From Massalongia carnosa (taxonomy: Eukaryota), in the NCBI GenBank assembly GCA_965645245.1, contig OZ287083.1:310001-374000 (forward strand): a DNA stretch of 64,000 nucleotides, given 5' to 3'. The translations under genes and the position numbers were made by a program. Shown here in pieces: positions 25,496-53,260 of the stretch. Below the pieces are notes generated by a model. The model was given only the letters and a program-made list of their open reading frames with translations, did no database searches and was not told where the DNA came from. Each line of letters opens with the position of its first letter. Position 1 is the first letter of the stretch.

Positions 25496-25853
25496 TGTAA
25501 GAAGTACCGCAAGTGAGGCACCTTTATGAGTGAAAATTATTTGGTAATAACATAAAAGGCTTTTAGCCAACTTGATGAAATACCACGGTCGGACATAAAC
25601 ATCGGAGTTATCGGCAAAAAGGCGCTCGATTATTCATCGTCTATCACCTAGTTAAGTTAGTTTATGCACGCTTATTCCTGACCTCTCTTTCTCTTTTTAA
25701 TAGCTTCAATCTTAGCAACATGCGTCATCACGCCACACGTTTCTATCCTTAACGTGTATTATAGATACCAATATCATCAGTTTTTTGCCGCAGCTGGTCT
25801 TCTGTCACTCGCTAGCATCAGTTACTTGTCTTTCACTCTCTTTTCTCTCAGTA

Positions 25854-28704
25854 ATGGCAGAATTGGTGTCTGTCCCACAAAAAGAAACGCTCAACTCTCC
25901 AGTTTTATCCTACTCAATACGTTCTCGTGTACTTTCTAGTTCTTCCTTTTGGCCGACTAATCAGCCACGCGATCTTCGTTCTCCAGGCTATCGGAAGGAT
26001 TCAGCTCGCACTGAACCCTTCCCTATAGCGCTTCCATCTCCTCCTCTTTCTGAAAGTGAGAAATCCAGTTCGCCTAAGTTTAGTTTCCGTTATATCAACC
26101 GGGCTCAAGCTTCGCGATCGTTGTCTGATACCTCGCCCGTAAATTTCTATTCGGCAGTTTCCTGTGTCCAAAACAGCAGCGAAGCAGATGGCATTTCCTT
26201 CCCATCTTCTCCTTATGTTGATGAATGCAACGAGCTTATATCACAAGCTGAACTCATTCAAAAAATAGACTCGTTTCCTTTTCCTGTTCAGCCTACAACT
26301 TACCAAGAGTGTAGCATAAGTAGTATAGCGAAGGATCAAAAGAGCAAAAAACAGACAAAAAGATATTTCAATACTGTAACAACCCCCTTCACTCCGCCGT
26401 CCACTCCAGATCGCTACATTTCGAGTCGAGATGCATCCCAGTCACCACTCAAAAAATTTCGTTTGAGTAAATCTCCGGACAAATTGTCGGTAACGGAGAG
26501 GCTTCTACGCCAACATTCGACCATGCTAGACCCCTTCAGCTCAGCGTTTTCAACACAAGTTAGAGGGGATAGACCAAATTTACTCTTTGATGTAAGAAGC
26601 CCAAATCTGGTTCGAACTGGGGCAATAAGTGGTGCAAGTGTACTCGGTGTTTCACGGGACCATCCTTCAATCCAAAGTAGAGGTGCCAGCATAGGCGCAG
26701 TGTGGAACGTGGGTGGCAGCTCGGCGACCACCTCTTCGGGTCCCATCCAAGGAATAACTGATGGTAGAGGAGGGATGATCGGAAGTGGTACGAATGCGCC
26801 AATGTATACATCAAATTTTTTGCACGGACGTTCGTTTGCACAGGATCACGACCGTCTCGAAGGTCGAATTGCTATCGCTCTTGATATTAACCAGACAAGC
26901 AGGATCTTAAATACATCTCAACCGGCAGAACGTGGAAGGAGGGTGAACGTAGATCATGTTGGAACTAAACGGAAGCCACTCTCCTTAGAGCCTCGGACCC
27001 AATGGATTGACGGGGAATGGGTCCGAGAAGATACACCATCACGTATGTACCCAAAGTTCCAAAGGTTTTGATTAAAAAAGGAGGAGGAGTGACCTGCATC
27101 AATAAAGGAGATGGGCTCTATTTGGCTTAAGTTGCGAATAATATTGTGATCAAAAGTTGCTAACATTCTATCGCCAGCTACAAGAAAGACTCGAAAAGCA
27201 GAAGTGAGATCCGTTCCTACCACCCCCTTTAGATAGGTGTTCATGCTTTCTTTGAAAATAGCCCTATCTAATGTAAAGTACAGTGTTGGACGCACCTCAG
27301 CTTCGAGATGATTTCTATTGTTCTGTTCTTGCTTATTGCCATACTGCTCGTACTCTTGCTGTTGGTCTCAGAAATAACGTATATCTATGGTCTGAATCCT
27401 TTGGGGTGCAAGTTCCTCAGATGGAAGAAGCGAGTGGTCAGGAGACATATGTCAGTTCATTGTCCTTTTCATCTGTCGAAGCCGGCCACAGCATTCTAGC
27501 TATTGGTCGGAACAATGGTCGGGTTAATCTCTGGAGCTTGTACGACGAACATGGGACAAGATTCCATGCCAAGCAGCCTAGCGCCATTTCTTGTGTTGCT
27601 TTCAAGCCAGTTGCCACTCGAAGACCGTCAGAGCGGTTTGGATCGCCCGTTTTTATGGAAGATCTTCTTGTTGGAGACGAATCTGGAATGGTCAACTACT
27701 ACTCAGTTGAATGGATGAGTAATCAACAAGTTGATATTCATGGCTGGCAGGGCGCCATGAACCTCATCGCAAAGATCAATGTGCATCATCAACAGATCTG
27801 TGGACTTGCATGGTCACATGATGGGGAGTATTTCGCCACTGGAGCGAACGACAATCTGTGCTGTCTTTTTGAAGTCAAGGATATCTTGACTCCACCCAAT
27901 CAACACTTTGGTCAAGCGGAGCCTCCAAGAGAACCTCATTTGACGGCTCGCTTTGAATTTCAAAACTCACTGCCTAGTTCCGCGATGGCATCGAAACCAA
28001 TGAGCTTTAGGAGACTCAATCCTCAAGCCCTTGAATATGTACAGACTTTGTCAGGTTACACCGGCTCAAGCGATCTACCAATCATCCGTAGAAAGAGCAT
28101 TCTTGGCCACCATGGAATTCTAGAAATCTCAGAAGGCCGACAAAAACACAAGTGGATTCATAGTGCAGCTATCAAAGCAATTGCGTTTTGTCCTTGGCAA
28201 CGTGGCCTTTTGGCCACTGGAGGCGGTACTAATGATCGCGCCATTCACTTCTATCATACTTTCTCTGGAGCATGCCTTGCCACCATTGACGTGCAAGCAC
28301 AGGTGACATCCTTAATCTGGTCCACAAGCCGTCGAGAAATTGCCGCAACGTTTGGGTACGCGCAACCAGACCACCCCTATCGCATTGCGGTTTTTTCCTG
28401 GCCGGACTGTAAACAAGTTGTAGCCATCCCCTGGGGGACCGACATGCGCGCCCTCCTCGCCATCCCTTACCCTGGCGGGCCTAACGAAGTAAGCCGGCAG
28501 GTAGGCGAAGGGGGAACTTGGTGGAGCCGGACCTCGGAGGAAGGGTGCATTGTTGTAGCATGTTCGGATGAATCGGTAAAGTTCCACGAGGTTTGGAGCG
28601 GGGCGGGGAAGGCTACAGGGGGGCACATTGGGTTGCTCGGTGGCAGCGATATCCTCGAGGGACTTGAAGGGATCGACAAGGAGGGAACGGATGTCATTCG
28701 CTGA
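25854..28704 (+). CDS. AMA1: Cdc20/Fizzy-family APC/C activator, AMA1-like (meiosis/sporulation type), 888 aa
   Basis: Exons 25854-27042, 27178-27232, 27282-28704 (intron 1 GT-AG; intron 2 AT-AC, see findings). C-box DRYIS, PFRVLDAPQLRDDFY, WD40 motifs QQICGLAWS, HSAAIKAIAFCPW, LATGGGTNDRAIHF, C-terminal IR tail (DVIR). The long insertions are typical of the Ama1 clade rather than Cdc20/Cdh1. Confidence 0.85.
27233..27281 (+). other. Non-canonical AT-AC intron (49 nt, U2-type signals)
   Basis: TTT AG|ATAGGT...CTAAT gtaaagTAC|A GTG TTG GAC restores F-R-V-L-D. No GT-AG or GC-AG pair gives this frame without the in-frame TAG at 27234. Confidence 0.75.
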
Positions 28705-30600
28705 AGCTATTTGTTTTCCCTTCTTTACTTATTTACTAGTTTTTCGTGACTTTGGTCAGTTGAGGAGTTGATCGTTAGACGTTTGGTCCAAGCGAATCGT
28801 CTCCTTAATATCGGGGAGCGGAAGGGAGTTGGGGCACTTTTATCATTATCCTATCCTTTACAGGAAGCGTTGCATCGATTTACAGAAATTTTCGTGATTA
28901 GAACTCCCTATTGCTTTCATGAATTTTTACGTACTGAAACTCATCCCCACTTCTAATACCTAACATTAACGATCTTGATCAGCCACACCAACAGAAAACA
29001 TAATTGGCATATCCATAAGCAAAGTATTCCTAATTTCTACGTTCACTCTCTCTTCTCTTCATACTTTCTCGCTTGCCGTAGTCCTACCATATCGAATTAG
29101 ACCTTGAAGGAATGTGCTTTTTTCTTTCATCCCCAGATAATCAGATCTTTTTCACAGAACAACAAGCGCGGCTATCTGTGGAGACCTAGGGAACAATAGA
29201 TTACTGAAGATTTTTGTTCACGAAGATGGCATCGGGAACTGAAAAAGGGAAATGGCACACGGTAGAACCCCGAGATTGGGAAAAGAATTCGACGTGATGT
29301 ACCAGTCAATCTTTCCAAAATTCACGTGCTTCCTCAACCCTTCAGTCCTTCCACCTCGTGTCCAATGCTTTCCGACGTTTAACTTCAATGCGTTTTGGCC
29401 GTGATCCTTAGCACTCCTGGAGAAAGAATCAAGGATCTGAGGAGAAGAAAGTTGAACGATTACCTTCTAGGGCTCCTAGACACTCATATAGACATATCCT
29501 ACCACTATCATGGGGCTGATGGCAGTAGAAGCTGTTGGATTATTTTGTGCCACTATTCAGGGGCCTCGGAGATATGGAGAGAGTTGCGATGCTGGTAGCC
29601 TATACTTAGGCTGCGTACATTTAACTTTTCTATGCTAGAAAATACCCGGCGTCTGAGTAGAGGAGATGAGTTTATATCAAACTGCTTAGGATATTCTCTG
29701 AACTAATACCAATCATGATGAACAAACTTTTGAACATCGTGGACTTGGTTAAGAAAAATGCTGCAGGAAATTAGGCTTAAGATTGTAAGATCTTGAAAGA
29801 TAATGAGAAAATATGAGAATGACAGGGAAGACGATGATAGTTGGCTTTTTCTATTATCATTGTTACAGACAAGTGAGACTTCTTTTCAAGAGAACCAGTA
29901 ATCTTGAAACTGAACAGGGCACACCGGTTCACGCAGATCGCCTGCCAGGAGTGATGGCGGTCAGTTCTCATACCTGTATTCTCATTCATGAACATTTCAG
30001 CACAAGCTTAGATTAGTTTGAGCTTTCTCGAGGCTTCTGTCGGATTGAAAGATAATAGCACCCACATGTGCAATCTTTACCCAAGTCAGGTTCCTGAAGA
30101 ATCCCTCGAATGAAATTCGCCTTCTGATTGTCATGACTTAAGCATCTTGATAGAGCATCTACCTAATAACAAAACTTCTTGAAGTATTCGTCAAAGAAAT
30201 TCGTTTTTTGAGTAAATCGTAACATCAAATCCTTAGATGTATAATTGTAAGTCAGAGTTGCCTTCAAGAAACGCGCTGCACTTAGAATCAATTTCTCGAT
30301 TGTTGAAAGGAGACTGAAGATAACTGAAACACAGCCTCTTTTTGAGATGGAAAGCTATATGTTGAGGGTCTCACAGAATAATCCTTGGATGTAAGTCCGC
30401 TGTACAGAGTAGAGTACATACTATGTACACACCTGCGCCGAGGCCTTTCGAATGTAGCTAGCTCCAGTATTAGCACGCACACATTAAACTGCTAACCGAA
30501 AATCATCAAGCCAAAAGACATCAAGAGCTAACACAACCGTCGACTTCCTCCCTCGACCCATTATCGACTCCTCCATCTCGACAACCCTCCACCCGTTAAG

Positions 30601-51994: not shown

Positions 51995-53260
51995 ATGGCT
52001 CTTTTCAAGCCATACTGTAGAACCCTGAGGAGTCTCAAACCTCAAACGCTATGGAGAGGTTTCTCCTGTTCTACAACTCGTCTGGCAGAGGAGGTGCGAA
52101 TCGTGGAAGTAGGACCAAGGGATGGTTTACAAAATGAGAAGAACTCGATTTCTCTTAGCACGAAGCTCGAGCTCATTCGGCGATTAGCAAGGACAGGTGT
52201 CCATAACATGGAGGCTGGTTCATTCGTCGCGCCTAAATGGGTGCCCCAGGTATAAATGATACACTGCAGAACCATTCATTTATTGATCTCACTTGGCTAA
52301 AGATTCCTACATACATAGATGGCAAATTCAGCCGACGTCTTAAATCACATTCTTGAGCAACCTCCTCCAGCGCCGTCACAAGTCGCATACAATTTTCTAG
52401 TTCCCAACCTCAAAGGACTAGAGAACTTTCTAAAAGCTAGGAACGAATCGTTGCCGTCAAGAGCCGGTACAGGTTCTAATGCTTATCCTAAACATACTCC
52501 ATTGCCGCACTTTCACGCCGCAGAAGATCCTAGTCCGAGTTCCACCCATGGCTGGCACCAAATATCTTTGCAGTCATCAGACGTAAATGAAGAACGAAGT
52601 CCCGTAGCATCCTCTCTACCTACCAATTCAACGGAGATTTCTGTCTTCACAGCTGCTACAGAAGCATTTTCGAAGGCAAACACAAACTGCTCCATTTCGC
52701 AGTCTCTAGAGCGCTGTAAGCCTATTATATCTCTAGCTAAATCCCAAAATATACGCGTGCGAGGATACGTGTCAGTTGCTCTTGGCTGTCCTTATGAGGG
52801 CCATAACGTGTCTCCTTCCAAAGTCGCGGAGATAACGGCTACCCTACTTGAGGCGGGCGTTGACGAGGTATCTCTGGCTGATACTACTGGTATGGGGACA
52901 GCAAGTCGAACCCACGAACTTCTGAAGGAGTTGGCCTCATGGGGTATCGCCTTTAAAGATCTTGCTTTACACTTTCACGATACCTATGGACAGGCTCTTG
53001 TAAATGCGACTGTAGGTTTAGAGCGTGGGATTAGGACATTTGACAGTAGCGTTGGCGGCCTTGGTGGATGTCCTTACTCTAAAGGAGCAACAGGAAATCT
53101 GGCCACGGAAGACCTCGTGTACTGGCTACACAGTCTTGGGGCAAGCACTAGCATTGACCTTGAGGAAACGGCAAAAATCGGTGCATGGATCTCTGCTGAA
53201 TTAGGTAGGACGTACGATAGCCGAGCAGGGAAAGCGATAGTAGCAAGACTCTCGTCATAG
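51995..53260 (+). CDS. HMGCL: Hydroxymethylglutaryl-CoA lyase, mitochondrial, 398 aa
   Basis: Exons 51995-52249 and 52319-53260. Presequence-like N-terminus; VRIVEVGPRDGLQNE, GSFVAPKWVPQMA, LADTTGMGT, HFHDTYGQA, GLGGCPYSKGATGNLATEDL. Confidence 0.93.

Follow-up and report, generated by a model that had tools for sequence, protein, structure and literature searches.

A predicted U2-type AT-AC intron in an AMA1-like gene of the lichen-forming fungus Massalongia carnosa and in its orthologues from three fungal classes

U2-type introns that begin with AT and end with AC are very rare, with 24 reported in five genomes, or 0.003% overall (PMC1557818). Those of human SCN4A and SCN5A are described there as shown experimentally, with borders conserved from human to pufferfish, and the same source hypothesises introns of this kind (AT-AC II) in xylanase genes of filamentous fungi. 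In Saccharomyces cerevisiae, an AT-AC intron has been reported inside the annotated intron of RPL30, where an A–C interaction replaces the G–G interaction of the first and last intron bases (PMC11585973; the A1–C(−1) pair is credited there to Parker and Siliciano 1993). Here we analyse a 64,000-nucleotide (nt) stretch of the genome of Massalongia carnosa, hereafter the window, in which an AMA1-like gene, predicted to encode an anaphase-promoting complex/cyclosome (APC/C) co-activator, is interrupted. The interruption, at positions 27233–27281 of the window, is very probably a genuine spliceosomal U2-type AT-AC ('AT-AC type II') intron.

Two described members of the AMA1 family depend on a step after transcription. 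The splicing of budding yeast AMA1 is reported to be meiotic and Mer1-dependent (PMC11585973). In Fusarium graminearum, a premature stop in FgAMA1 (PSC33/FGRRES_10728) is reported to be repaired by sexual-stage adenosine-to-inosine (A-to-I) editing, and the authors of that work set the FgAMA1 stop beside the meiosis-specific intron of yeast AMA1 (PMC10776026; PMC4817773). As to the splicing machinery, the surveys in PMC2846911 and PMC10639083 report Ascomycota and Dikarya to be without minor introns and minor small nuclear RNAs (snRNAs). An earlier reading of the locus, made from the sequence only, had named the yeast case, the Fusarium case and the lack of a minor spliceosome in Pezizomycotina, and all three agree with these sources as far as they describe the matter.

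The reading frame of the gene can be followed directly in the sequence. The tail of exon 2 reads ...CCC TTT AG and is followed by A27233, an in-frame TAG and a GT at 27237, and exon 3 starts at 27282 as A/GTG TTG GAC. Joining 27232 to 27282 produces the motif PFRVLDAP and a coding sequence (CDS) of 2667 nt with a single terminal stop, which encodes 888 amino acids (aa), contains VPTTPFRVLDAPQLRDDFY and has the C-terminus ...DVIR. The predicted exon 2/exon 3 junction is CCCTTTAG/AGTGTTGGAC. The boundary slides by one base, as removal of 27234–27282 (TA...CA) yields an identical mRNA; of the two registers, AT-AC alone fits a 5' splice-site consensus. If intron 2 were retained, the product would be 415 aa long, keeping the C-box and losing both the WD40 domain and the IR tail.

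Other ways through this region were considered and rejected. The GT donor at 27237 is located 3' of the in-frame TAG and fails on frame and motif grounds. Upstream GT or GC donors joined to CAG-27283 or AAG-27278 do not keep both frame and motif, and if the TAG is read through, the 49 nt shift the frame. As predicted from the sequence, both the PF[RK]VLDAP junction and a protein of full length can be made only by removing 27233–27281. The sequence-only reading had already argued that only this 49-nt removal restores PFRVLDAP, that the GT at 27237 comes too late, after the stop, and that retention would truncate the protein before the WD40 propeller; direct reading and translation lead to the same result.

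Homologous proteins follow the spliced model. The protein of Seirophora (P0018) aligns with it in one BLASTP high-scoring segment pair (HSP) that runs over both junctions (residues 123–888 against 75–786, 55.5%), and the gene models of Gyalolechia and Variospora, also Teloschistaceae, likewise align unbroken across both. Because the alignment with the Teloschistaceae proteins is continuous, removal of intron 1 is required as well. Exon 3 alone matches Pfam PF24807 (CDC20/Fizzy WD40 domain) at 212.6 bits, with a cut-off of 200, and the WD40 exon matches Lecanoromycete proteins at 60–74% identity. Close relatives are named 'meiosis-specific APC/C activator protein AMA1' by JGI and NCBI. An N-terminal C-box, DR[FY]I, and a C-terminal IR tail are motifs of APC/C co-activators. 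The class to which FgAMA1 belongs falls within the same gene tree, which was built without CDC20/CDH1 outgroups. By these similarities, the gene is predicted to be an AMA1-like Cdc20/Fizzy-family APC/C co-activator of a lichen-forming Lecanoromycete. The positions of its parts are given in Table 1.

Table 1. Predicted features of the AMA1-like gene at 25854–28704 (+); positions are those of the window.
Feature	Position	Strand	Description
Exon 1	25854..27042	+	Open reading frame and spliced model; putative ATG at 25854 as start; disordered N-terminal part; ends in phase 1
C-box-like DRYIS	residue 186 of the spliced model (exon 1)	+	Motif position read in the 888-aa model
Intron 1, canonical GT-AG	27043..27177 (135 nt)	+	GTATGT at 27043; CTAAC at 27160-27164; closing CAG up to 27177
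Exon 2, 55-nt micro-exon	27178..27232	+	Codes (P)TRKTRKAEVRSVPTTPF; its last two bases open the R codon
Intron 2, predicted AT-AC, phase 2	27233..27281 (49 nt)	+	ATAGGT at 27233-27238; CTAAT at 27268-27272; 3' end TAC
In-frame TAG	27234..27236	+	With intron 2 retained, translation would stop here, at residue 416
Exon 3	27282..28704	+	Third base of the R codon; VLDAP...; CDC20/Fizzy WD40 propeller; IR tail (..DVIR); TGA stop
Inverted repeat, 9-bp arms	27229..27237 (TTAGATAGG) and 27263-27271 (CCTATCTAA)	+	Perfect; 5' splice site and branch region would pair through it

Non-canonical ends together with an in-frame stop could also be the mark of an assembly or base-call error, or of a pseudogene that is no longer spliced. 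We compared the contigs of four runs, from three studies, with positions 25700–28800. The X1 and X3 contigs, which carry one organism label and come from two samples, show zero differences from the window, and X1 may be its source. The X4 contig comes from a lichen metagenome; of its 3101 bases 10 differ, but 27233 and 27281 are not among them, and its change inside exon 2 (27218 T>G) is synonymous. The X5 contig, under a second organism label, shows zero differences over 27220–27370. A27233 and C27281 are thus present in contigs from three studies, in line with the claim of the sequence-only reading that the ends do not stem from a base-call error. Error and decay are further contradicted by three exons that are open and conserved and by 22 further distinct orthologous AT-AC introns, and we regard either as exceedingly improbable.

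The AT-AC pattern in itself is not significant, because a loose scan of the window on both strands (AT[AG]NGT, then 40–80 nt, with YTRAY 5–12 nt before YAC) returned 15 matching stretches. The weight for a predicted intron comes from the restoration of the frame and from the orthologues, not from the pattern. Two of the other scan matches are AT...AC stretches with U2-like signals and open flanks: one at 25917–25968 (+), within AMA1 exon 1, almost certainly a chance hit, and one at 52237–52292 (+).

Orthologues were collected by scanning JGI metagenome contigs with an 18-sequence alignment, which confirmed 133 stretches, and the analysis continued with the 80 best. Four of these (L042, L059, L066 and L078) begin past the junction and were dropped, leaving 76 loci, which were compared at the phase 2 position within the R/K codon of PF[RK]VLDAP. 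An AT-AC intron is present at this position in 39 of the 76 loci and a GT-AG intron in 19. Two loci have AT-AG (L027, L029), two have AT-AA (L028/L030), 13 have no intron, and one (L035) has too little upstream sequence but is AC-ended. With the window included, these loci hold 23 distinct AT-AC, 16 distinct GT-AG and two distinct AT-AG intron sequences, and one AT-AA. The orthologues keep [VLI]P..PF[RK] in exon 2, and the use of all four third bases in its P codon and of both in its F codon indicates coding selection. In one AT-AC locus (L043:158-1485) the WD40 exon is interrupted again some 31 codons from its start, probably by an extra intron without a counterpart in the other loci.

The AT-AC introns carry the signals of the major class. 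The 23 distinct sequences are 46–53 nt long and all match AT[AG]NGT, in other words the common fungal GTRNGT sites carrying A in place of G1; the 5' hexamer is ATATGT in nine, ATAAGT in five, and ATACGT, ATGAGT and ATAGGT in three each. The preceding exon ends in AG or AA, and once in CG. YAC forms the 3' end in 22 of the 23 (CAC 14, TAC 8), with AAC in the remaining one, and in 21 a YTRAY element places the branch A 10–11 nt from the 3' end; the branch-like CTAAT of the window places it at 10 nt. Both +5G and +6T are found in all 23, compared with 12 of the 16 distinct GT-AG introns, an excess which would fit compensation for the +1 mismatch, the sequences not being independent of one another.

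AT-AC ends and a short, fixed distance from branch to 3' end would also be displayed by a U12-dependent intron, or by a relic of one spliced by cryptic minor machinery. U12-type introns have flexible terminal dinucleotides, a property that the AT-AA and AT-AG variants recall. However, a U12 5' site ([AG]TATCCTT or ATATCC-type) was found in none of the 23 distinct AT-AC introns, nor was the U12 branch box (TCCTTRAC, scored as CCTTRA), and the 10-nt spacing of branch and 3' end is shared by the orthologous GT-AG introns. No Rfam snRNA family matched in the 64-kb window, a small span that says little. Since the introns show U2 signals and zero U12 signals, and since the surveys cited above report Ascomycota to be without minor introns and snRNAs, we class them as U2-type AT-AC, and the lack of U12 hallmarks noted by the sequence-only reading extends to the orthologues. 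U12 dependence is accordingly rated as very improbable. For the position itself, a U12-type ancestry is conceivable.

Intron 2 is most likely removed by the major spliceosome through the known A1–C(−1) pairing. Its 5' site, /AUAGGU, is the fungal GURNGU with G1 changed to A, and U1, followed by U6, would recognise it by its positions +2 to +6, while CUAAU would act as the U2 branch site. At exon ligation, A(+1) and C(−1) would stand in for the normal non-Watson–Crick pair of G(+1) and G(−1). Either single change would break the terminal pair and is expected to be deleterious, and this mutual constraint of A1 and C(−1) is the most likely cause for the persistence of the AT-AC ends; a regulatory role is possible, but unneeded.

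The AMA1 intron is a deeply conserved new example of a known, very rare class, and a comparison with the described cases brings out what sets it apart. With human SCN4A and SCN5A it shares the AT-AC ends and a U2-type 5' site, modelled in that case as a change of G1 to A (PMC1557818). It differs from them in its host, a fungal lineage without a minor spliceosome, in its length of 46–53 nt and its CTRAY branch, and in being known here from sequence alone; moreover, the AMA1 position is conserved across fungal classes, where it is also found as GT-AG, AT-AG or AT-AA, or has lost its intron. The intron of RPL30, as far as its report describes it, is likewise a fungal AT-AC intron without minor-intron features (PMC11585973). 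However, it is nested in an intron of a ribosomal protein gene, whereas the AMA1 intron interrupts a CDS and its removal is needed for the full-length protein. The xylanase introns are also a proposal of U2-type AT-AC introns in filamentous fungi, but in a different gene family.

Within its own gene family, the intron can be set beside that of yeast SPO70/AMA1, which also combines a weak, non-consensus 5' site with a gene of the sexual cycle. The yeast intron, in contrast, is described as GU-AG with the Mer1 enhancer AYACCCUY, and no such conserved element was seen in the AT-AC introns, by an eye reading beside a test that covered stems only. The yeast intron reportedly also occupies another site of the gene. 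FgAMA1 is the same orthologue, and in both cases the full-length protein needs a post-transcriptional step. In Fusarium this is reported to be the stage-specific editing of an exonic UAG, in Sordariomycetes, whereas here, in other classes, a non-canonical intron would have to be spliced out. No description of an AT-AC intron in AMA1 was found in open-access papers and preprints, a coverage outside which subscription journals lie.

The distribution of the intron states was examined in two trees. The loci were assigned to classes by BLASTP similarity to named entries and by a 92-row tree with 36 named references, in which the Lecanoromycetes comprise 25 rows (window included), the Dothideomycetes 21, the Leotiomycetes 20 and the Sordariomycetes 21, with an unlabelled group of five rows as sister to the Dothideomycetes. 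The other tree holds 56 distinct proteins encoded by exon 3, each 400 aa or longer, with identical rows merged and with L043 and L055 excluded for their interrupted open reading frames (ORFs). One half of this tree contains 31 rows, 25 with AT-AC introns and six without an intron. The other half contains a mixed clade of 12 rows (three AT-AC and the cut L035, two AT-AG, one AT-AA, three GT-AG and two intron-less) and its sister of 13 rows, all GT-AG.

The alignment of orthologues thus places AT-AC ends at the same position in Lecanoromycetes and Dothideomycetes, and also in part of the Leotiomycetes, on both sides of the midpoint root, while the Sordariomycete-like loci are all GT-AG, as are some Leotiomycetes. 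With the frame restored in the window and the same ends in more than half of the compared loci, from three classes, the AT-AC intron with U2-type signals that the sequence-only reading had proposed stands. Some of the loci lie very close to named species: L049, with an AT-AC intron of 47 nt, is 99.6% identical to a protein of Alternaria conjuncta, L027 (AT-AG) is 97% identical to one of Stipitochalara longipes, and the intron-less L034/L046 are 97% identical to one of Cadophora gregata.

Since AT-AC is shared by three classes and found to either side of the midpoint root, parsimony places it in the common ancestor. This points to an origin of the AT-AC ends that would predate the split of Lecanoromycetes, Dothideomycetes and Leotiomycetes, and we infer that GT-AG would have appeared later, on the stem of the Sordariomycetes and inside the Leotiomycetes. 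The intron was lost in 13 loci, representing eight distinct proteins, by at least five changes on the tree. The intron-less loci (L013, L015-L017, L034, L036, L046, L058, L060, L061 and L063-L065) sit in at least five places. In one of them, L061, on a 4.6-kb contig, both introns flanking exon 2 are missing, and it may be either an intron-less gene or a transcript-derived contig.

One Leotiomycete subclade, 92–97% identical to the Stipitochalara longipes protein, holds GT-AG (L024/L025), AT-AG (L027, L029) and AT-AA (L028/L030) introns side by side, and its AT-AC relatives L026, L032 and L033 branch outside it. The GT-AG donors of L024/L025 are weak (GTAAAA/GTAAAC). The AT-AG and AT-AA forms look like intermediates of a stepwise switch from AT-AC to GT-AG that would have begun with a change of the 3' base. 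The coding exons of L027-L030 seem intact: in a tblastn search with a Clarireedia protein, exons 1 and 3 match at an identity close to that of GT-AG relatives, a crude comparison in which the HSPs run through introns.

Several points weigh against a U2-type AT-AC intron of ancient origin that is held in place by its terminal pair. The AT-AC junction is predicted from genomic DNA, for the window and for every orthologue; the contigs of all four runs that cover the locus are unspliced across both introns, and none is on record as RNA. The AT-AG introns of L027 and L029 and the AT-AA introns of L028/L030, in genes with intact coding exons, misfit a strict requirement for A1–C(−1). The ancestral AT-AC state is a parsimony estimate on a quick-search, midpoint-rooted gene tree. 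Finally, one AT-AC clade (L041, L045) has no class label, and the other labels rest on protein similarity.

Database proteins offer an independent proxy for the intron. Of 360 proteins collected, 176 reach at least three residues upstream of the V of VLDAP, and the context before this motif is ..T in 67, PF[RK] in 68 and other in 41, many of them ..R. A threonine at this place is what the read-through of an ...AC/N end yields, because ACN encodes threonine, whereas an AG-ended intron gives R. ORF-called relatives that reach upstream almost always read ...T-VLDAP. Among named gene models, PF[RK] before VLDAP is absent in 25 of 62, and three more are N-terminally truncated. The share varies with the class, from 14 of 18 models in Dothideomycetes and six of 17 in Lecanoromycetes to three of 13 in Leotiomycetes and two of 14 in Sordariomycetes. 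The models of Letrouitia, Psora, three Xylographa and Lambiella pass from exon 1 straight to [LIVF]LDAP, with no PFR, and those of Teloschistaceae carry PFRVLDAP. For two of the 25 models a non-canonical intron is seen in a near-identical locus (Alternaria conjuncta, AT-AC; Stipitochalara, AT-AG), the rest being identified by proxy only. This suggests a systematic mis-annotation brought about by the non-canonical intron, in which the 55-nt exon 2 would be skipped, or the intron read through, in many public models. The named models concerned include P0126, P0159, P0065, P0090, P0244 and P0299, and a Botrytis model reads ...FST/VLDAP. We also considered database proteins as evidence of spliced transcripts. 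A junction of the PF[RK]VLDAP type is present in 71 of them, and the one nearest to an AT-AC locus, P0246, is 90.6% identical to L033; it is unusable as complementary DNA (cDNA) evidence, because at this distance a cDNA cannot be told from an intron-less relative.

Given the precedent of FgAMA1, RNA editing has to be weighed as another way to a functional transcript. Editing of A27233 to inosine would create a GU donor, which could be joined to AAG-27278 (F-S-T-V-L-D), or the TAG itself could be edited and read through. Sexual-stage A-to-I editing is reported in filamentous ascomycetes and prefers UAG, and the AT-AG orthologues L027 and L029 would turn into GU-AG introns if their A1 were edited. 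However, A27233 is preceded by G, whereas fungal editing is reported to strongly prefer U at −1 (PMC11156358), and the editing system is described as having arisen in Sordariomycetes (PMC10776026). An edited A1 in an AT-AC intron would produce a GU-AC mismatch, the junction at AAG-27278 would replace the conserved R/K, and editing of the TAG would leave the frameshift of the retained 49 nt in place. Editing at this locus is therefore hardly to be expected, and the direct removal of a U2-type AT-AC intron is preferred.

Asking whether splicing of this intron is itself regulated adds a question to the structural explanation and does not replace it. Splicing of the AT-AC intron could be poor as a rule and become efficient in sexual or ascus tissue only, so that vegetative cells would yield only the truncated product or decay-prone RNA. 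The sequence-only reading had proposed this as a possible third, convergent lock on Ama1; we consider such a lock unlikely, though worth entertaining. In its favour, AMA1 is reported to be gated post-transcriptionally in two other lineages, budding yeast and Fusarium, and a premature stop is reported to have arisen six times independently at the equivalent site in Sordariomycete orthologues (PMC10776026; PMC4817773). AT-AC dominates in classes for which PMC10776026 reports no A-to-I editing of this kind, and GT-AG is found in 13 of 13 distinct Sordariomycete-like tree proteins (19 of 19 GT-AG-state loci, including some Leotiomycetes). Retention stops translation at once in the window, and across the distinct AT-AC introns it gives an immediate stop after the R or K codon in 13 cases out of 23. 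In L055, a Xylariales-like locus, the intron is GT-AG and a conserved W is replaced by an in-frame TAG.

Several points weigh against such a lock. The complementary distribution amounts to one phylogenetic event, and in the 13 loci that lost the intron the WD40 exon is open throughout, with no replacement stop seen. No conserved intronic element was found beyond the splice signals, and the mutual constraint of A1 and C(−1) accounts for the conservation without any function. A conserved hairpin was considered as a general mechanism and dropped. The 9-bp stem of the window is not reached in any of 200 shuffles, and the overall fold has a z of −0.12; orthologues do not conserve it (their longest stems average 4.30, those of controls 3.99), and it is unique to the window.

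The Xylariales-like locus (L055:1651-3066), which is 89% identical to a Rosellinia protein over 147 aa, has its in-frame TAG at codon 149 of the WD40 exon. The TAG replaces the W of EWPE[RA]W EV, which is kept in 24 other aligned Sordariomycete and Leotiomycete sequences save two outgroup rows, and the 1416-nt frame is otherwise open. In this the locus resembles FgAMA1, with its reported premature stop and A-to-I editing.

The AMA1 position provides a natural series in which to study how the first and last bases of an intron constrain each other, and how intron subtypes switch. A practical consequence concerns exon 2, which is apparently skipped or read through in many public annotations. As AMA1 is reported to be gated after transcription in both yeast and Fusarium, it is also a sensible choice for asking if development can be gated by a non-canonical intron. 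It is conceivable, if doubtful, that the AT-AC ends have been kept to make AMA1 splicing conditional, with exon ligation by the major spliceosome efficient only in sexual tissue. Most classes of Pezizomycotina would then control the meiotic/ascospore APC/C activator through a non-canonical intron, Sordariomycetes would have swapped this gate for an edited premature UAG, and yeast uses Mer1. If true, the three lineages would have found three solutions to one trade-off between survival and reproduction, and the AT-AG and AT-AA forms of one Leotiomycete subclade would represent, in a lineage without a minor spliceosome, still-living stages of a switch between subtypes.

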